Notes under the pieces: generated by a model
Database searches by the model: none
Seen by the model: only the letters and a program-made list of their open reading frames with translations
What the model was told of the DNA's origin: nothing
Program-made: the position numbers and the translations under genes
Source of the DNA: Carcharhinus amblyrhynchos
Taxonomy: Eukaryota
Reading direction: 5' to 3'
Assembly (NCBI GenBank): GCA_965287045.1
Contig: OZ336875.1
Location: 86,800,001 to 86,864,000, forward strand
DNA length: 64,000 nucleotides
Shown here: positions 9,430-62,606 of the stretch, one piece after another
Layout of the letters: the number at the start of each line of letters is the position of its first letter
Numbering within the stretch: the first letter of the stretch is position 1

Positions 9430-11460
9430 AAGGTCTCATTTTGGTATAGTGCTTCCATTACCTGGGATGGAATTTGTCCTTCAGGTGTCCAGAATCATCC
9501 TTCAATGATCTGATCCTTAAGATCTTATGTACTTTGAACACTCATTTTTCTTTGACCTTAGAAAACAAAAATAAAGTTCTGAAATCTCACCAATGTACTG
9601 GCCTATAGAAGACATCATGAAACAACAAACAAAACATTAGCTATCTGTTCATTTGGTTAAAGGACGTATAAATTCAATTCCTCTCAATTTTGGCAGCCAC
9701 AGCTGAATACAGTATTAATGGTGCGGACTATAGCATTATATTATTTGATCATCAACTGCACCGACTTGTATTCTACTGATTTGACAACGTCATTCAACAT
9801 ACTACTGGTTTTGTTGATTATTACACTCCATTGTTGGGACATATTTGGAGTCAACTCTAAGTTGCTAAGTCTTTTTCAGCTTCTGCCTTAGCCATTTCAA
9901 CATTACTTGGAAATCAATGTATCATTCATTTTCTTCTATCTATAATACATGTCTGCATTAAACTTAATCAGTTATTACTCTATTCACATTCAAATCTTGT
10001 TAAACTGAAACTTTGTAGTTTGTTAGCTGCCTCCTTCAATTCCACTACTCCTACTAGTTGGGATAATCCTTAAATTTTGCCAAATTATATTATTTTCGAA
10101 ACTAGATCAATTATAGATATAGAAATTGTGGTGGTCATAACACTGAATCCTGTGATACACCACTCTCTATTTCTTCCCACTTTGACATAACTCCACTAAT
10201 GAGTATTTGCTGTTTCCTTCACTTCAGCTTTTTTTTTTATCAATTCTGAAGGTTTGCCCTAAATCTCCACAACCCTGAGTTTAATTAATAGATTTTTACA
10301 TATAGCATTATCAAAAGCCTTTTGACCAACAAGGTGCACCACATGATGGGACATTCCACAATTCACTTACGTTGTGATATTCTCAAAGCTGTTGAACAGG
10401 TTGATCTGACAGAATCTTCCCCTGCTGGTTGTATGGTCACCTCTGTTAACTAGGTTTCTGTTCCAAAGTTTGTTTTCAAATTTGATCCTGATCGTTGATT
10501 CTATACCTTTAGATGGAAAAGACTAAAGGGGCCATACTTTCCTGTACTTTCAACGTTTGTCACCCTTATGAACATGGGCACCAATTAGCCTGCTTCCAAT
10601 CCATTAATACTTGCCTTCCAGTGCCTATTGCATTCCCAATAACTGACAGTTCCTCACAGATCTACCTGTTTCTCTCATAATAATTACCATTTAGCACTGG
10701 GGATCTATTTCTTTTAAGCACCAGCTAGGACTACTGTACAATTAATTAATTGGGCAAAATCTTCAACTTTAATGGGGACATAAAATGAACAGTAGTGGAT
10801 CATCTGCTCATCTGCTACACCTCACTCGATTTACCTTTCTACTGACATCAATAGAAGGGAAAATTATAGGCTTGAATAATAGACAACCAGTTCACTAATT
10901 CCAGTTGTATATCTATGCCAACGCTGAACATTTTTACCACTGAATTTGCCGAAGTTATTTTGAGGATGTCATGTTGCTCAGGTTCCCTTGCTGAACATCA
11001 GAAGAAATTCATTCCATTATTTCATTGACTATTTTATGCTTTTCCTGACTTTTAAGTTTGTAAGCATCATTTCATCCTGTTTAGTTCGTTCAATCAGACC
11101 ACAGTACCGAGACAGCCTGAAAAATATCTTTACCTCTTGTGCTGCAGTTAAAAATGCTATTTCATATGTGCTTTTATATAACCGCTTTACCACTGAAATT
11201 ACCTGCTGCAGTCACAAACACACTAAACTAGAGCCGTGATAAAGCTGGAGTGAAGCAACAAAATGCTACCACTTCGAGGTACAAAAGCTCTATTTCCAGA
11301 AGATGCCCCTTTTCAAAGTTCAAATATACCAGATTTGTAACATCCAACTTATCTCAGCAATTCATGGTAACTCTCTCCCTCTCACTACCATGGAATCTTT
11401 CAGATTTGTCATACACAAACTCTACAATCTTGAAAGATACCAAAAAATTATTCAATCTAT
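9430..11460 (-). mobile_element. Very old, heavily decayed CR1-like LINE (RT plus upstream remnants)
   Basis: Minus strand at about 10140-10165 encodes SGVSQDSVL (SGVPQGSVL-like). TCAAAAGCCTTTTG at about 10311-10324 reads as KAFD on the minus strand. Many stops and frameshifts. Confidence 0.6.
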
Positions 11461-11902
11461 TTGTAAAAAAAATCTACTTAAATGGGAGCTCAGTTTTCCA
11501 TGGTGAGCAAAAGTTGATTTTAAAATAACATCAGCACATTTGTTGAATGTGTGAATCTATTTTCCTTCAGTAATTGCAAATTATGGGTATCTTGCTATAT
11601 GTTTGCATTATCATCCAGAAAATAGTTTAAAATATTAAGAATAGGAGAAATGCTGCATAAAGCATATCATTGCTCTCCTTCCTTTGTTCACTCCCACCAA
11701 ATATGAGTTTCAGTCTACTCAACAATGTACTATTAAACATTCTCAGTTTTTTTTTACACAAGTGGTCAGGTTATTTTGTTATTGCAAAGTCAACCCCATG
11801 ACTAATGGATAGCGTGAATGGAGAGCTCTGATGTTACCCAGTCACAGCAAGAAGCCTCACAACACCGGGTTAAAGTCCAACAGGTTTATTTGGTAGCACA
11901 AG

Positions 11903-11939
11903 CCATGAGCTTTCAGAGGACTGCCCCTTCATCAGGTGA
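11903..11939 (-). ncRNA. Minimal type I hammerhead ribozyme motif (core intact, stem I mismatch)
   Basis: Minus strand reads TCAC-CTGATGA-AGGGG CAGT CCTCT-GAAA-GC-TC^ATGG: CUGAnGA and GAAA core, 5-bp stem II, palindromic AGCT stem III. Confidence 0.6.
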
Positions 11940-12410
11940 GTAGGAGTTATGTTCACAAACAGGCCATATAAAGACACAAAATCAATTTACAAAATAATGG
12001 GTGGGATGTGAGTCTTGACAGGTAATCAAATCTTAAAAGTACAAACAACGTGAGTGGAGAGAGGGTTAAGCACAGGTTAAAGAGATGTGTATTGTCTCCA
12101 GCTAAGACAGTGAGATTTCATTCTGTTGATTATTTCATTGACTATTTTATGCTTTTCCTCACTTTTAAGCTTGTGAGCATCATTTTAACTATCATCCTGT
12201 TTAGTTTGTTCAATCAGACCGCAGTCTGATTGAACAAACACCCTGAAACATATCTTATAACACATCTCTTTAACCTGTGCTTAACGCTCTCTCTACTCAT
12301 ATTGTCTGTACCTTCAACACTTGATTACCTGTAAAGACTTGCATTCCAACCATTATTTTGTAAATTGAGTTTGTATCTTTATATGACCTATTTGTGAACA
12401 GAACTCCCAC

Positions 12411-12448
12411 TCACCTGATAAAGGGGGCAGCGCTCCGAAAGCTAGTGA
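12411..12448 (+). ncRNA. Minimal type I hammerhead ribozyme motif (G8-to-A mutated)
   Basis: TCAC-CTGATAA-AG-GGGGC AGC GCTCC-GAAA-GC-TA^GTGA. Stem I TCAC/GTGA and stem II pair, but the core has CUGAUAA instead of CUGAUGA. Confidence 0.6.
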
Positions 12449-13286
12449 CTTATGCTAACCAAATAAACCTGTTTTTATTTTAACTTAGTGTGTGAGACTT
12501 CTTACTGTGTTTACCCCAATCCAACGCTGGCATCTCCACATCATGGTTACCCAGTCACCCAAGATAATCTATTAGCCCTCGGGAAGTTAAGTACATCATT
12601 TGTTTAATAAGAAAATTTTTCAAAGAACACATTTCTAATTTTTTGCTCTTCTTGCTTCTCTAGGAAGTAACTACCATTATTTGTTCCATCTTAATTAAAC
12701 ATTAGCATAAAACGTGCTATTTGGTGAGAAACCCAGTCAGGTTTCATATAAAATATTGAGGACACCATCTATACTGGCAATGATGTTAAACCAGTCTTGC
12801 AGGAATGAATAGATGGCCTTTGAGTCATTCCATCACCAACCCTTTTACAACCCCCATCCTGTCATGTGATTATAGCATAATTCAAAGAGATTGGCCTGGT
12901 CCACTATAGTAGGACAAAACAAATGTTCATAACAACTTATATTTTTGAACTGCAGTTGTGAAAAATGCATGAAGTGTATATTATTTTCAAACAGCAATAA
13001 TTAAAGTTAAAAAAAATACATTTGCTGCCAAGAAAGGCACTTATAAGTTGATCTGATTGGTAGTTCTTGAAAAGGTAATTTTTGAGGCCGTACACTAACT
13101 ATTCAACTTGGTTGACACTGCTCTGTAAATCCTGGCTCTGAGGTTTTCAAATCTGAGGTAATGCCTTATGGAAAAAATATAAACATGGCTAAAAATGGCA
13201 AGTTGTAACACTCATATGGGGACAGCCAAATGATATCTGTATATTCTTTTTTCTCATTCCCATTTTCGTATGTACCTCTTTCTTTA

Positions 13287-51619: not shown

Positions 51620-52545
51620 CAGCTCAGAAAGCGGCCCTTCAGCCCATTTTGCAAGAATGTTGGTCCCATTCCAGTTCAAGTGCAATCATCTTCCCCAGAA
51701 ATGGACCCAATGGTCCAAGAAACTAAAGCCCTCTGTCCTACACCATCTCTTCAGCCACATAATCATTTGCTCTATCCTCCTATTCCTATATTCAGTGGCA
51801 CATGGCCCTGGTAGTAATCCAGACATTATAACCTTCAAGGTCCTGCTTTTCAATCTGCTACCTGGCTACCTAAATTCTTGCTCCAAGACTTCATCTTGTC
51901 TTATTTTTCTACCGATGTCATGGTACCAATATGAACCACAACCTCTGACTGTTTACCCTCCCCTTCCAGAATGCCTGGCAACCAGTGACATCCATGACCC
52001 TGGCACCAGGGAGACAATATACCATCCTGGAATTACATTTGCGGCTGCAGGAATGCCAATCTGCACCCCTGACTACCACTATTACTCTTCTACTCTTAAT
52101 CCTCCCACCATGTGCAACTGAGCCACCCACAGTACCATGAACTTGGCTCTGGCTGCACTCCCCAGAGGGACCATCATTTTCACCATTTTCCAACACAGAA
52201 AAACAGTAATTGAGTGAGATGAACTCTGTGTTTTCCTGACTACCTGTTCACCACCATCATCCCCCGCCACTGGTTTTCACACATTCCCTCTCTAACTGAG
52301 CTTCCTTAAGCTGTGAGATGACCTTGTTTAAAAATATGCTATCTATGAACCTCTCAACCTCATGGATGCACTGCTGTGCCTCTGGCCAATGCTCAGGCTC
52401 CAAAGTTCGGCTCTCAAGCTAGTCAAACTGGTAACACTTCCTGCAAATGTGATCATCCAGACTGCAAGAAGCGTTTACAAATTCCCACATGGTGCAAGCT
52501 GTGTAAAATACAGGTCTGAGTTCCATTGTCATACCTTTAGTTAAA
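51620..52545 (-). mobile_element. Internally deleted CR1 (3' end joined to ORF1 esterase region)
   Basis: ORF SRRVIVV.RGADWHSC..K.NSRMVYCLPGARVMDV is the CR1 ORF1 SGNH/esterase region. CR1 terminus ACAGCTCAGAAAGCGGCCCTTCAGCCC at about 51619. Confidence 0.75.
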
Positions 52546-52837: not shown

Positions 52838-54660
52838 ACATAACTAGGAGCAGAAGTAGGCAATTCAGCCCCTCAAGCGTCCTTCGCCATTTAACACTAT
52901 TATGGCTTATCTCATCTCAGCCTCATTGCCAACATCCTGCCCATCCTCCACAACCCTTCATTCTGCTACTGATTAAAAACCTCTCTATCTCCTCCTTGAA
53001 TTTATTCAGTCTTCCAGCATCCACTGCACTCTGGGGTAGAGGGTTCCACAGGTCCATAACCATTTGAAAGAAATAATTCCTCATTTTGTTTTAAATCTGC
53101 TATCCCTGAGCCTAAAGCTATGGTCCCTCATTCTAGATTGTCCACAAGGGGAAACATCCGCTCTATGTCTACCCTGTCAGTCCCCTTAAGCATCAAATAT
53201 ACCTTAAGTGATCTCCTTTCATTCTTCTAAACTTCTACAAGTATAGACCAAAGCTGAAAAGTCTCTCTTCATAAGATTAGTCCCTCTTCTATGGGACCAA
53301 TGCTGACTTTAGCTACTCCCTTCATTTTTATGTACCAGATCAGTTCTAGATTGAACTGATCAATCAATCTATCAATTCACTAGAATCAATCTAGTGAACC
53401 TTCTCTGAACTGTCTCTAATGCATTTACATTCTTGTTCAAGTAAGGGGGCCAAAACTGTGTGCAGTACTCCAGATACAGTCTTCCCAATGCCCTACATGG
53501 TTACAATAACACTTCGCTACTTTTGTACTCTCCCCCATTAGCAATGAATATCAAAATTCCATGTGAGATTCATGCACAAAGATGCCAAGATCACTCTGCA
53601 CCAAAACATTTTGAACTTGCCTTTTTGTTCCCCTGACCAAAATGGATAACCTCACACTTATCTATGTTAAATTCCATCTGTCAAACTTTGACTCACTTAC
53701 CTAACCTGTCCATATCCTTTTGTAAATTTCTTATTTCCTCATTGCAACTTGCTTTTCCACCTATTTGAGTGTTATTTGCAAATTTGGTTATAGTACCTTC
53801 TATCTTTGCATCTAAGTCACTAATATAGATTGTAAATAGTTGGGGCCCCGAGGACCAAACCCTGTGGTACACCACTAGTTACAACTTGCCGACCAGAAAA
53901 AGATTTATTTATTGCCATTCTTTGCTTTCTCTTGGTTAGCCAATCCTCTATCCAAACTAATAGATTATACCCAACCCTGTGGAATCTTACCTTATTTATT
54001 AATCTTTTGTGTGGCACCATATCAAATATTTTCTGGAGTCCAGATAAACTACATGTACAGGATCCCCATTATCCACTTTATTAGATCTTCAAAGAACTCT
54101 AGTAAATTAGTCAAACATGATTTACCCTTTGTAAAACCACACCGACTCTGATGGATTACAAACTGACTTCCCAAATGTCCTGTTACAACTTCCTTAATAA
54201 TGGATTCAAACAATTTTCTAATGACAGATATTAAACTAATTGGTTTACAGTTTCCTACTTTCTACCTTCTTTTTTGAACAGGGACGTTACATTAGACATT
54301 TTCTAATCCACTGGAATTTTGAAATATTATAAACAATGTTTTCACTATCTCTGCTGCCATTTCCTTTAAGACTTTAGGATGTAGGTCATTACGCCTTGGA
54401 GACTTGCCTGGTTTTAATCCCAATAGCTTGCTCAATACTTTTCACCTACTGGTGGTAATTGTTTTAAGTTCCTTCTTTTCAAAAACATTTGCATTACCTT
54501 TTACTATTGGGATGGTTCTAGTGTCCTTTATTATGAAAACCAAGGCAAAATATTGATTTGGTGTCTCTGCCACTTCAGTGTTCACCGTTATTAATTCACC
54601 AGTCTTATTCTCTGAGGGACCAATACTGGCTCTAGCTACTCTCTTACTATTTACATACTT
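52838..54660 (-). mobile_element. CR1 LINE ORF2 RT and 3' UTR, decayed
   Basis: ORFs VPHKRLINKV...WIEDWL..RKQR...TSGVPQG and PQLFTIYISDLD...TKFANNT (FADD mutated). Confidence 0.92.
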
Positions 54661-54844: not shown

Positions 54845-57210
54845 TGTTGTGCTATGTTGTATTTTCAGTAGTTCTCATGAAGAGATTCTCAGTCTTGTAT
54901 GGTTAAACACTAAGAGTTTATTTGTAACACATAATTACATATGAGGTATAGTCCAAGCTGGGAGTTAACTCCATGCTGGCTTCTGCGTAGGTCTCTGTCC
55001 AATTCACAGCTCTCTCTTAACCTTTACCTTGCACTGTGGTTGACCCCTACTATGCCAGATATACTTCTACTAAATCTCCTCCATGATTTTAACCAACATG
55101 TTTATAGCAGAGCTGTATTTACGCAGTGTATTTTTATTTCCATTATGCTAACACTTCTCCAAACCTCAAATCTCTGTTTTTACAGGGTCAGACAATCTGG
55201 AGGCTTGGGAAGAATTCTCCCCCAAAAAAATTATAAGTGTTGAATTCACGTGAAAACTGGAGTAATTCACTCTGTTTTTTTCAGTGGGAGTTCACACGAG
55301 AATCTCCTACACTCTGTGCAATGCAGAAGCCACCAACGTGAATACCATTAGATTTCAGAGGGCGGGGTCCATTCCCATCCAGTAGTCTGAAACCAGCAGG
55401 CCTCTTCCCATGCACAATGGCCCTGAACTGTCAGCTGCCCATTTGCTGGCCAGCTTGTTTGCTGGCCAGCCCAGGATAGCTCAGTGTTGCACCCCCCCCC
55501 AACCAGCCCACAGGCCAATTGTGGCCCCCCACACCATTCCTGGGCCAGCCTCGATTTCCCCTCCAATCCCAGACTACCCCAATCCTCCAGCCACCCCCTC
55601 ACAGTGCCAATCTCCTGCAGGCAGACCCCCCTCCCTCTCCTCCCCAGCCTGCCCTGATCACTGGCCTCTCTCCTGTCCTCATCAATCACAATGGCGGAGT
55701 GGCAGTGGGACCTCCACCCCTATCGATCACCCCCTGGGCCCGCCCCCATATGCCCCACCCTTGGCACTGATGGGGTTGGAGAGGCTAGCGGGCCTGGAAA
55801 ATTCAGTCCTGGGCCCGCTAATAGCATTTAAGAGATACTTAAAATATCCCTGCCTTCCCATAGAAATCCAGCACTGGCGATATTAGCAGGACGTGAACGT
55901 GCCTTCCACGCAATTCTCCTAGCTAAAATTAGCGCAGCAGGATGGGAGAATCACCATTCCCATTGTTCTGGTTATATTAGAAGAACAGGTAGGCTCTGTT
56001 GATTTGGAGGTTGCTTTGTTGGTCGTCTTGCTGGCATTTGTTTGTCTACTAATTCTTTTCTAGCATATAGCAGGAGTTTCACCTTGGGGGACGAGGTGGA
56101 GGCTCCTCTTGTATCTCCTGATCATGCTTTCCAGAGTATGGATGAGGTATGGTCTTAGCTGGTCATTGCCTCTCCAGACAATAATGCACTCTCTCTCAAA
56201 AGTCTTTGATCCACATCCTCTCCTATTTGTGTATTTGCGGAAGATGACTAGTGCAGTACCTTCTGTTGTAGGCAGAATCCTGCTTCTACCTGTAAGACTG
56301 TCCTCTGCCAACGCTGGTATTAGTTTCTTTGGCAGGGTTAGGAGTTGAGTGCAGAGCTTCCTGCCCCTCAAGAACTCTAATGGGGCTAATACAAATTGCA
56401 GCAGGATGGATCTGTGAATTAACAGAGCTGTTGGAAAGTCGTCATTTTTTTCTCAGGAGAGCATTAATGATGCAGAGATCCCTTTCTGCCTCACTGTTGA
56501 TTATGGATATCTTGAGCAGTTGTAAAGTATTGCAGGCCATAAGTGGTAGCAAATTGAAGTATGTTTTTTTTTGTGAATTGTGGACTATTATCAGACATTA
56601 CCTGGTCTGGGTTACCATGGCTTGCAAACATTTCTTCAAGGATCTCGTAACAGCCTCTGTGGTCATCATGTGGTCACCTCACTCCAACAGGAAAAGTAGT
56701 CCACCATGATGAGCAAGGATCTTCCATTAAAAATGAACCATCACCATGGGTTGATAGGGAACTATAGAGAATAAGGGGTTCTCTCTGGTCAAGCTTGAGC
56801 AGCAGCACACCCCTGGCAGTTGTGATCATTTCTTCAACTGAATATATGTAATGTCCACGTGACCCTGATAAATTGTTTGGAGAATCTCTATCCAAAGGGA
56901 GACTGGAATGACCAACTGCTTGTAAGCTAGCAGGTCATCTAGGATGGTAATATACTTCTGCTGCTCAAATTAAATTTTCACAACACTGCCTCTTGGACTC
57001 TGCTGTGGCTACTTTTGTTGACAGTAATGGCAGGGGCAGGGATGCTCCTACCTCACATATGCTCTTAGTGGATTTATTGAAGTTTCCTCAGACAGCAAGT
57101 AGTTGTCTCTTCACCAATTGGGAGTACAACTTGAGCTTCTCAATCAGATTGAAGTCATGTTTCACAGGAAAGACAACTGTGGGTATGGATAGTATCCCTG
57201 CAGCCATTTG
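54845..57210 (-). mobile_element. Decayed Gypsy LTR retrotransposon: integrase, polypurine tract and 3' LTR (about 54845-55074)
   Basis: Minus-strand remnants MVDYFSCWSEV, EMFASHGNPDQVMSDNSPQF, NSEAER, GRKLCTQL and C-terminal TR.....KPPDCLTL*. Purine tract at 55075-55082, then an LTR-like segment with AATAAA ending ACAACA. Confidence 0.8.
55207..55954. mobile_element. Non-autonomous DNA transposon, same family as 30929-32066, inserted in the Gypsy integrase tail
   Basis: Termini GGGAAGAATTCTCC and GGAGAATCACC; shared subterminal blocks with the 30929 copy. Confidence 0.8.
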
Positions 57211-59695
57211 CGCATGAGCAGTCGGAGGGAGCACATCAAGAGTGAGACACAGCCGGAGTGAGTGAGGGTATCAGGAATTTGGAGCACAGTGAGAATTGGT
57301 GCAAAGAAAAAAAAGGTGCGTTTTGTTTTTTCTTTTGCTTTCTAACTTTTTAAATCTTCAGTGTGCAGTTTTGTCCTCTTGCAGCAGTAGAGGCTACAAG
57401 GGAGAGACAGACTGGGAAGCAGTAGATAAGATCGGGTTAAGTATTTTCTACTTTTATTGCTTATAGTTTGTGAGGTCGTCTTGTGGTTTATAGCTCTATT
57501 GCAATGAGGATCAGGAAAGAAGAGTCCTTGAATAATTTGGATATTATTTCACATGAAGCATCTTCCAAAGGTTTAATTTAAAGAGTTAAGACATAGCAGG
57601 AGAGCTCAAAGCTGTGATGTGCTCCTCGTGCTCCATGAGAGAACCTGAGAACACTTTCAGTCCCCAGGGCCAGCACTTGTGCAGGAAGCGTTTTCAGGTT
57701 AAACTCCTAGAAAACCAGGTTTCAGAGCTGGAAAGGCAGCTGGGGACACCCTGGAGCATCCACGAGACAGAGCACTGCCTGATACCTTCATTCACTCTGG
57801 CTGTGTCTCACTCATGATGTGCTCTCTCCGACTGCTCACGCGCAAATGGCTGCAGGGACATATCACAAACTCCGACTCCATAGGCAGAAAGAGAATGGGT
57901 GACCACTGGACAGAGCAGAAAAAGGCCCAGGCAGACAGTGCAGAAATCTCCTGTACATTATTCCTCTGCAAAATAGCATTTTGGATAATGCTGAGGGAAT
58001 GGTCTCCCAGGAGAAAGCAGCAATAGCCAAATTCGTTGCATTACAGTTGATTTTGTTGCACAGCTGAGGAGTAAAAAAATGTGGGAATACAATAGTTATA
58101 GGAGATTCAACTGTAAGGGGAATAGATAAACATTTCTGTGGTTGCAAATGAGACTCCAGAATTGTATGTTGCCTCCTGGTGCTAGGGTCAAGAATGTCTT
58201 GGAATGGTTATAGGACATTCTGGAGAAGGAGGGTGAACAGCCAGTTGTTATGGCACATATCTGTACAAACAACACTGGTAAAATGAGGGATAAAGTTCCA
58301 AAAGCAGAATAAAAGGAGTTAGGAAATAAGTTTAAAACTAGGACCTCAAAGATAGTGATATCAGGATTACTACCTGTGCCATGTGCTAATCAGGGCAGAA
58401 ATAGCAGAATATATCAGATGAATACATGGCTGAAGATATGGTGTGAGGAAAAGGGTTTCAGATTTGTGGGACAATGGTACCAGTTCTGGGGGAGGTGGGG
58501 CCAGTACAACTGAACAGCTTGCATTTGGGCAGGACTGAGACTTATGTCTTAGGGGGGTATTAGCTAGAGTGGTTGGGGAGCATTTAATCTAAAATAGCAG
58601 CGGAATGGAAACCTATGTAAGGACTCAGAGGAAGGGGAAAAAAGGACAAGTGCAAATGATAGAAAAGGGAATAAGAAAAGTGACAAGCAGAGAAATCAAG
58701 GGCCTGAATCAAAAAGGGCCACAGTAAAAAATAGTGGGAATGGGACAGTAATGTTAAAAAGACAAGCTTCAAGGCTTTGTGCCTTAATGCATGGTGCATT
58801 CGTAATAAAGTGGATGAATTAATCATGCAAACGGGTATGTATTTGTGAGACATGGCTGCAGGGTGACCGAGGGTATTCATTTAGGAAGGACAGTCAAAAA
58901 TGGAAAGGCAGTTGAGTTGCATTGCTGGTTAAAGAGGAACGCAACATTGAGGGAAGATATTAGGTCTGACAATGTGGAATCTGTATGGGTAGAACTGAGA
59001 AATATTAAGGGGCAAAAAACATTAGAGGGGGTTGTATATGGACCTCCAAACTGTAATGGTGACATAGGGAATGGCATTAAACAAGAAATTAGAGATGCAT
59101 GCAGTAAGGGAACATCTGTAATTATGAGTGACTTTAATCTGCATATAGACGGGGCAAATCAAATTCGTCACCGTAGAGAAGGAAATCCTGAAGTGTATAC
59201 AGGATGGCTTTTGGACCAATACGTTGAGGAACCAACTAAAGAAGAGACCATCCTAAAATGGGTAATGTGCAATGAGAAAGGAATAATTGGCAATCAAGTT
59301 GTGTGAGACCCCTTGGAGATGAGCAATCATAATATGATAGAATTCTTCATCAAGGTGGAGGGTGACGTGTTTGATACTGACATAAAGGTTCTGAATCTTA
59401 ATAAAGGAGACTATGATGGTATGAGGCATGAGTTGGCTAGGATTGATTGAGAAATGTTACTTAAAGGGATGGTGCTGCATAGGCAATAGCAAATAATGAA
59501 AGAACATATGGGTGAACTACAACAATTGTTTATACCTGTCTGGCACAAAAGTAAAATAGGAAAGGTGGACAAACCATGGCCTCCAAGGGAAATTAGATAT
59601 TGCATTTGATCCAAGGAAGAGGCATACAAATTGGCCAGAAAAAAACAGTAGACCTGAGGATTGGGAGTAGCTTAGAATTCAGCAAAGGAGCACCA
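57211..59695 (+). mobile_element. CR1 5' half: 5' UTR, ORF1 and endonuclease, decayed
   Basis: ORF1 CSSCSM...HLCRK....LLENQVSELERQL and IVIGDS.VRGID. Endonuclease motifs VESVWVELRN, GVVYGPPN, IMSDFNLH. Confidence 0.92.
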
Positions 59696-60034
59696 ATGTT
59701 GTTTGGAACATAAAAACAGGACGGGTGATGGCACATTTCCTCTGAATGAAACTTTACTGTATAACTATACTTTCCACCACTTGCATTGCTCAAAACATGT
59801 GGTGGTAGTGCTGTCCTACTCTCCAAATCACACACTGGTAACTTCCTTACTTCTCTGGCAAATCCGGCTTCTTTCAGGATCCCATTTTATTCCATCCTTC
59901 TCAGTATCGTTTAAATACTACTTCTATATCTTCCACCCAAATATCGCTGCAAATTTCTCGCTCAAATACCTTCAGTGCTTGCTATCCTTTGCAAGTTGGT
60001 GGAGTTTCATTGTTAATCAATGATGATATTGATA

Positions 60035-62606
60035 TGATATTGAGGAAAGGTATTAGCATAGATGATGTGAATCTATATGGGTCGAGTTAAGAAACAACAA
60101 GGGGCAAAAAACATTGGTGGGGGCGGTACACAGACCACCAAACTATGGTGATAATGTTGGAAAAAACATTAGACAGGAAATCAGAGGAACATTTGTGATT
60201 ATGGGTGACTTTAATCTGCATATAGATTGGAAGAGTCAAATTAGTCACAACACAATAGAGGAGGAATTTCTGGAATGCATATGGGATGATTTTCTGGAAC
60301 AATACGTTGCGGAACCAACAAGGGAGCAGGCCACGTTGGACTGGGTGTTGCGCAATGCGAAAGGATTAGTTACCAGTCTGGTTGTGAGAGAACTCTCACA
60401 ATTATAGTGACCATAATTCTTTGTCAAGGTGGATAATGATGAAGTTGATTCTGAGACCAGGGTCCTGAATCTCAATAAAGGTAGCTAAGATGGTATGAGG
60501 CATGAATTGGCCATGACAAACTGGGAGACATTACTGAAAGGAAAGGCAGTGGACAGGCAATGACGGGCATTTAAAGAATGAACAGATGAACTCCACACAT
60601 TTGTTTGGCGTAAAAGTGATAAGGGAATTTGGCCAAACCATGGCTTATAAGAGAAATTAGAGATAGTATCAGATTTAAGGAAGAAACGTACAAATGGACA
60701 AGAAAAAGCAAGGGCCTGAGGATTGGGAGCAGCTTAAAATTCAGCAAAGGAGGACCAAGGGATTGATTAAGAAGAGAAAAATGGAGCATGAAAGTAAACT
60801 CGCAGGGAACATAAAAACTGACTGCAAAAGTTTCTATAGATATGTAATAAGAAAAAGATTGACAAAAACAAATGTAGGCCCTTTACTGTCAGAAACAGGA
60901 GAATTCATAAAGAATAAAGAAATGGCTTCAGAAGTAAATTTGTACTTCAATCTCCACAAAAGGAAGACATAAATAATGTGCCAGGCATGCTAAGAGAAGC
61001 ATGTTTTAACATGGAACTGAAGGAAAATAGCATTATTAGAGAAATGGTTTTGGGGAAATTGATGGGTTTGAAGGTGGATAAATCTTCAGGTCCTGATAAT
61101 CTTCATCGCAGAGTGGCCCTGGAAATAGTAGATCCATTGGCGATTATTTTCCAAAATTCTTTGGATTCTGGAACAGTTTCTACTGATTGGAGGGTAGCTA
61201 ATGTAAGTCCACTATTCAAAAAGGGATGCAGAGAGAAAACAGCGAACTATGGAGCAGTGAACCTAACGTTGGTAGCGGAGAAGTTGCGAGACTCTATTCT
61301 CAAGGATTTCATAACTTGGCATTTGGAAGACAGCAGTATAATCAGACAAAGTCAGCATGGATTTACAAAAGAGAAATCATGCTTGACGAACCAATTGGAA
61401 TTTTTTGCGGATGTAACTAGTAGAGTTGACTGAGGAGAACAAGTGAATGTGATTTATTTAGATTTTCAAAAGGCTTTTGACAAGATCTGACACAACAGAC
61501 TCTATGTAAAGTTAAAGCACATGGGATTGCAGGTAAAGTCTTGAGATGGCTAGAAAGCTGGTTAGCGGATAGGAAACAAAGCGTTGGCATAAATGGGTCT
61601 TTTTCTGATTGGTAGTCGATGACTAGTGAAGTTCCACAGGGATCTGTGCTTGTACCCCACCTGTTCATGTTACATATTAATGATTTGGAGGAGGGAACTG
61701 AACGTATGATTTCCAGATTTGCAGATGATACAATGTTGGGTGGGAGGCTGAGCTGTGAGGAAGATGCTGAGATGCTTCAGCATGATTTGAATAGGCTGAG
61801 TGTATGGGCATCTGCATGGCAGTATAACGTGGATAAATGTGAGATTATCCACTTTGGTAGCAATAATAGGAAGACAGATCATTACTTGAATTGGATTGAG
61901 AGAGAAATTGAGAGAAGTGGATATTCAACGAGACCCTGGCATCCTCATGCATCATGGAAGTAAGCATACATGTACAGCAGGTAGTAAAGAAGGCAAATGG
62001 ATTGTTGACCTTCACAGCGAGAAAATTTAAGTATAGGGATAGAGATGTTTTGCTGCAATTGTATAGGGTGTATAGGGTGAGGCCACACCTGGAGTATTGT
62101 GTGCAGTTTTGGTATCCTTATCTGAGGAAGGATGTCCTTGCTGTACAGAGACTACAGCGAAGATTTACCAAGCTGATTCCTGGGATGGCAGATCTGTTGT
62201 ATGAGGAGAGACTATATCAGTTTGGATTATATTCACGGGAGTTTAGAAGAGTGAGCAGGGATTTCACAGAAAATTCTAACAGGGTTAGACAGGATAGATT
62301 CAGAAAGAAAGTTCCCAATGGTGGGGGAGTCCAGAAATATGGGTAATAGTTTGAGAAGGTGTAAACCTTTTAGAACTGAGATGAGGAGAAATTTCTTCAT
62401 CCAGAGGGTGGTGAATGTGTAGAAATCACTACCACAGGATGCAGTTGAGGTCAAAATGTTGTCTGATTCAAGAAGAAATTAGATACAGCTTTTGGAGCTG
62501 AAGGGATCAAGGGATATGGGAGGAAAGGGGGATCAGGATATTGAATTTGATGATCAGCCATAATCAAAATGAAGGGCCGAATGGCCTACTCCTGCTTCTA
62601 GTTTCT
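60035..62606 (+). mobile_element. CR1 ORF2 (endonuclease end, RT) and 3' UTR, decayed
   Basis: IMGDFNLHIDW, SGPDNLH, DWRVANVSPLFKKG, QHGF...KSCLTN, VPQGSVL, RFADDT, VRPHLEYCVQFW. Tail GGGCCGAATGGCCTACTCCTGCT. Split by stops and frameshifts. Confidence 0.95.

Follow-up and report, generated by a model that had tools for sequence, protein, structure and literature searches.

Two decayed minimal hammerhead motifs in an inverted, probably Penelope-like and two-strand-primed insertion of Carcharhinus amblyrhynchos

A 64-kb stretch of the Carcharhinus amblyrhynchos genome (contig OZ336875.1, positions 86,800,001 to 86,864,000; hereafter the window) carries two hammerhead ribozyme motifs in the arms of an inverted repeat. 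This arrangement raises the question of what kind of element brought them there, how its two copies came to be joined, and whether either motif has a function at this locus. The preliminary description had proposed a minimal type I hammerhead motif in each arm, and both motifs are present with the layout confirmed. The right motif (12411–12448, plus strand) has all its stems paired: stem I is formed by 12411–12414 with 12445–12448 (Watson-Crick, 4/4), and stem II, preceded by two unpaired bases, comprises five pairs, one of them G.U. Its core occupies 12415–12421, with A at position 8 (12420) in place of G, followed by GAAA at 12437–12440, the palindromic AGCT at 12440–12443 and H17, which is A12444. 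The left motif (11903–11939, minus strand) has an undamaged core (11935–11929), but in its stem I the innermost pair is mismatched (C x A) and the outer pair is T.G. Its stem II is reduced to four pairs. Two of these are G.U, one being the closing pair, ordinarily G-C, and in fifth place stands C x C. The AGCT palindrome corresponding to stem/loop III is present in both copies. The two copies are damaged in different ways, as had been proposed, the left one in stem I and the right one at G8; the lesion in stem II of the left copy is a second one, absent from the preliminary description. A strict descriptor requiring an intact core and no mismatch in stem I matched no site in the 64 kb, so both copies are damaged. 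Over both copies 16 of 18 cells are paired, against 17–56% in slid controls, for a structure derived from these same sequences.

A relaxed descriptor, composed after the motifs had been seen, matched exactly two sites in the 64 kb, namely the two motifs. In 200 dinucleotide shuffles it averaged 0.28 matches per window, falling to 0.01 with the palindromic loop 3 as a requirement, and no shuffle (0/200) contained two matches with a palindromic loop 3, which rejects a chance origin of the motif; because the two matches are homologous copies, they count as about one observation. The Rfam search returned no hammerhead at gathering score, nor any among the 12 matches at E <= 10, which were dismissed as chance or as an echo of the inverted repeat. 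Folding of each 44–45-nt motif piece was not better than that of shuffles (z −0.32 and +0.84). An exact 21-base pattern outside the ribozyme was found at no locus in viral contigs or in prokaryote genomes, and two metagenome loci were rejected as chance matches of 21–25 bases.

Both motifs lie within an insertion unit spanning positions 11846–12545 and flanked by a perfect 13-bp direct repeat. The two copies of this target site duplication, 11833–11845 on the left and 12546–12558 on the right (both on the plus strand), are identical at 13/13 positions, and no third copy of the 13-mer is present in the window. The last three bases of the left copy also match the element, representing a 3-base microhomology. 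The unit contains two 5'-truncated element ends arranged head-to-head, with the 3' ends of both copies pointing outward. The left arm (11846–12118, minus strand) is inverted, with its 3' end toward the left duplication; its inner boundary is approximate, being set by the start of the match to a central patch. The right arm (12260–12545, plus strand) is 84% identical to it over 251 columns, the two differing at 36 of 247 sites (~15%). Only the right arm carries a tail (12507–12545, plus strand), 36–39 nt long with ATG as its last three bases (12543–12545), and the left arm falls short of the right arm's end by the same 36–39 nt. No coding capacity was found in either arm.

The repeat family to which the arms belong was analyzed in public sequencing runs, with contigs from 4 of the 24 listed runs placed at 80% likeness on 12262–13000, a region comprising the right arm and the right flank. 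The family is clearly very abundant: in all four runs the summed depth at 12519 is 2–4 x 10^5 times the flank depth, a ratio that is not a copy number. Loose ends of contigs cluster behind 12542–12545 in all four runs (302–805 contigs per place; agreement 0.33–0.36). Since hundreds of contigs per run diverge into unrelated DNA at this place, the right arm ends at the common 3' boundary of the family. The clustering of family ends at one 3' boundary, together with the unequal ends of the arms, led us to reject a DNA transposon with terminal inverted repeats. An assembly artefact was likewise rejected, as one contig of the run designated X1 matches 12522–13000 with no differences, a check that covers the right boundary and flank. 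In each of the three other runs a contig starting at 12522 covers the right flank and differs at 7, 7, and 16 of ~479 letters, so that the insertion is apparently old and common to the runs. Four of the 23 distinct joints listed start at 12509–12510, which corresponds to the tail-less end (two of them may be one event), which hints weakly at a recurrence of the second end in the family. Four of 12 joints listed re-enter the element at 12387–12405, a short way upstream of stem I of the hammerhead (12411). The target bases 12546–12550 resemble the letters most often found past the 3' end of the element in each of the four runs, at low agreement; this likeness may reflect microhomology priming or a target preference.

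The same contigs were used to evaluate the core of the ribozyme. The G at 12420, core position 8, accounts for 86, 85, 87, and 84% of the depth in the four runs. With G8 in the majority of the family depth, the A of the right copy represents private decay, and at this position the majority core is undamaged, which supports that part of the preliminary interpretation. At nine further listed sites that differ from the majority in the right copy, the majority letter reaches 90–98% (run X1); the share of G8 being lower than this, there is no sign of core selection among genomic copies. Of the 15 listed majority sites at which the right arm has another letter, 13 show the family-majority letter in the left arm, and at positions 12386 and 12452 both arms differ from the family majority. 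No two-sided compensatory changes occur between the two copies. The stem variants listed in the runs (12412, 12426, and 12448) are one-sided with pairing preserved, and no compensatory change is among those listed in the four runs; the depth at 12426 is ~2% of that at 12420, and coverage of stem II in the family is thin, so the comparison is a weak one.

The assignment of the element to the Penelope-like elements (PLEs), put forward in the preliminary description, stands on its anatomical side. The unit combines 5'-truncated copies, an adjacent inverted pLTR, a tail at one end and a target site duplication, and its anatomy indicates an endonuclease-positive PLE insertion unit. The coding side of the assignment found no counterpart, since none of the 126 stop-to-stop frames of the window (>=75 aa, searched with Pfam) represents an RT plus GIY-YIG ORF or another PLE frame. 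As no such ORF was found in the window, the PLE identity rests on anatomy. Pfam matches were obtained in 3 of the 126 frames, two to RVT_1 and one to exo/endo/phosphatase, all 41–49 kb from the element and none to GIY-YIG. These matches belong to decayed LINE remnants at 58818–62346 (plus strand) and 53823–54068 (minus strand), which we take to resemble CR1-type LINEs; regions 58946–59696 and 60039–60758 are direct copies, 70% alike. Another inverted repeat of the window, 81 bp long and 93% identical, comprises 57195–57275 and 57778–57858, ~500 bp apart, and is located inside a region where 51687–52073 and 58113–58497 are inverted copies (69%); the relaxed descriptor found no hammerhead at 57195–57858.

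The anatomy has close parallels among the endonuclease-positive PLE units described (PMC3846280, PMC8557442, PMC8969392), which likewise comprise head-to-head truncated pLTRs with a one-ended tail and a duplication, and may contain a palindrome near the inverted junction or unrelated sequence captured between solo pLTRs. The tail of 36–39 nt falls in the range of 30–40 bp given for PLEs (PMC8557442, PMC3846280). Unlike the rotifer examples presented in these papers, with their 8–10 bp duplications (PMC3846280, PMC8557442), the unit studied here has a 13-bp duplication and lacks an ORF. The motifs themselves resemble the minimal hammerheads that metazoan PLEs carry in their pLTRs (Cervera & De la Pena 2014, PMC4209133) in having a type I layout, a stem I of 4 bp, an unpaired base ahead of stem II, and palindromic positions 15–16 and loop 3. 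Most copies described there are single or form opposite-strand pairs 100–700 bp apart, and the distance here is 480 bp. They differ from the Schistosoma families of the same study, with stem II of 7–8 bp (PMC4209133), by a stem II of 5 bp and by the damage to both copies.

The missing coding capacity of the arms and the absence of a linked ORF would also fit a non-autonomous hammerhead retroposon, either a non-LTR retrozyme or a SINE-like element, without an ORF of its own and mobilised in trans by a PLE protein. Non-LTR retrozymes are likewise non-coding and PLE-related and carry a type I hammerhead, and those of animals are reported to be PLE derivatives, found in one chondrichthyan genome among others (Li et al., bioRxiv 10.64898/2026.07.22.740005). 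They are described as head-to-tail tandem units (bioRxiv 10.64898/2026.07.22.740005), and the locus is an inverted pair with no tandem unit, so a retrozyme array was rejected for this site. The element terminates in an ATG, and from this ATG (12543) a single contig of run X1 reads on for 11 codons in an open frame (a weak observation, made by eye); both features fit a PLE tail running into the start of an ORF, as described in PMC3846280. We therefore regard a non-autonomous origin as improbable.

The centre of the insertion, on which the preliminary description was silent, is of a different origin from the arms. About 140 bp are traceable to the target's own upstream flank: the central patch (12120–12256, plus strand) is a copy, in the same orientation, of host DNA at 11007–11130 (plus strand), 0.7–0.83 kb upstream of the left duplication. 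Over 110 aligned bases patch and donor differ at 8, apart from a 7-base gap, and they constitute the only non-self match of such length within the window. The patch also contains a fold-back palindrome (12204–12239) with 16/16 complementary bases and a 4-base loop, which is absent from the donor. Origin of the patch from a spliced transcript was rejected, there being no GT after the donor. Unlike the captured sequences in the PLE units described (PMC3846280, PMC8557442), this one can be traced to the flank of the target. In the literature covered, which excludes most subscription journals, no title or abstract treats target-flank patches between inverted pLTRs. Extra bases copied from target-flanking sequence have been described for the 5' junctions of LINEs (Yamaguchi et al. 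2014, PMC4245944); those junctions join element to target, unlike the patch described here, which is ~140 bp long, comes from a distance of 0.7–0.8 kb and joins two element ends.

The locally copied centre favours assembly at the target, with both strands primed and the ends joined by repair. In our best explanation, which we consider probable, the locus represents one old insertion, dead on arrival, of a highly abundant Penelope-like retrotransposon; it would have been primed on two strands and joined by repair, and would carry decayed hammerheads as passengers. The endonuclease of the element would have cut both target strands, 13 bases apart, and each 3' end would have primed reverse transcription close to the RNA's 3' end, one cDNA beginning at the end of the tail and the other at a tail-less start 36–39 nt further in. 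Both cDNAs would have stopped after ~270–290 nt, and host repair synthesis would then have joined them head-to-head through a patch taken from 0.7–0.8 kb upstream, with one fold-back. This reading accounts for two arms bounded by the 13-bp duplication, with outward 3' ends and a tail on only one of them; against it stand the lack of a linked PLE ORF in the window and of an empty target site in the four runs. A biochemical parallel is provided by the element Poseidon PAc of Anolis carolinensis (Frangieh et al. 2024, PMC11167929), whose purified protein cleaves and extends both target strands in vitro, as is proposed here, and uses two reverse-transcription start sites that bracket the tail, matching the one tailed and one tail-less end of the locus.

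The head-to-head pair could alternatively have formed by fold-back self-priming on an antisense template before or during insertion, as in the model published by Arkhipova et al. 2013 (PMC3846280), with a later central break repaired from nearby DNA. The divergence values bear on this choice, since differences are more frequent between the arms (36/247) than in the patch plus duplication (8/123; Fisher p 0.026), an excess not expected of one event with one RNA template. It could mean that two different RNA templates were used, or that the patch is younger than the insertion. The patch has about half the divergence from its donor (8/110) that separates the arms, which fits self-priming followed by later repair, and the two positions at which both arms depart from the family majority, 12386 and 12452, hint at one shared source. 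The gap in divergence is borderline once CpG-type changes (p 0.054) or a clustered block (p 0.07–0.10) are left out. Moreover, each arm stops precisely at one copy of the duplication, and the 3' ends of the arms differ; two primed strands explain this directly. Self-priming with later repair is on this evidence an unlikely alternative.

Regarding the activity of the ribozymes, the preliminary description had suggested cleavage as dimers, and this does not hold for the present locus. Since the motifs are located on opposite strands, no RNA bears both in sense, and the AGCU palindromes of this locus cannot make a cis dimer. The predicted fold of a read-through RNA is a single long hairpin (−361 kcal/mol, z −22), in which the probability of the hammerhead pairs is 0.000 on either strand; it is near zero for each arm alone. 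The stability of this hairpin, taken together with the apparent presence of the insertion in all four runs, might suggest that a host function, as a cleaving ribozyme or in the form of a long hairpin RNA, has preserved the locus. Such stability is expected of any inverted repeat, the arms have drifted apart by 15%, and each motif bears a disabling or weakening change; a G8C substitution is reported to abolish cleavage in a PLE hammerhead (PMC11167929). We consider a host function very improbable.

On the two-strand priming explanation, the hammerheads would be passengers of the pLTR that have decayed since insertion and have no function at the locus, which forms part of the reading considered probable above. 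In the source element, the motif probably enabled tandem transcripts to cleave themselves weakly, with the aid of the protein, via a dimer that the AGCU palindromes form, as judged by analogy with published PLE hammerheads. Minimal hammerheads of PLEs are reported not to cleave as monomers and to cleave at a low level as dimers (PMC4209133), and dimer cleavage of PLE hammerheads, reported by Lunse et al., is cited in a review (PMC6765202). The hammerhead of PAc cleaves only with the element's protein and is unneeded during insertion (PMC11167929); like the motifs described here, it lies ~100 nt upstream of the 3' end of the element. In PAc, according to the account of that element, the ORF starts inside the hammerhead (PMC11167929), unlike the present element, whose corresponding ATG reaches a stop within ~20 codons and whose end is formed by a later ATG. 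The frame opened by the ATG in the left hammerhead core runs from 11931 to 11871 on the minus strand and is closed by that stop; it has the same register as the ATG with which the element ends.

The hammerheads add little in themselves, as such motifs of PLEs, including opposite-strand pairs, were described in 2014 (PMC4209133). The centre of the unit touches on the route by which PLEs acquire their inverted terminal copy, a route still called open in the literature (PMC11167929, PMC8557442, PMC3846280). We put forward tentatively, and with rather less than even confidence, that the inverted pLTR is built at the target, with one cDNA per nicked strand, possibly from two RNAs held by a dimeric protein, and is joined by a repair that borrows local DNA. 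If this is true, the locus, which combines flank-derived DNA in its middle with arms that diverge more than the patch and duplication do, would be a genomic footprint favouring target assembly over the published self-priming model, although a single old locus gives only a hint as to which route was taken. Centres traceable to the target flank separate target assembly from a fold-back preceding integration, and the family offers very many such junctions. Its abundance would thus make the question of target assembly answerable from genome sequence alone.
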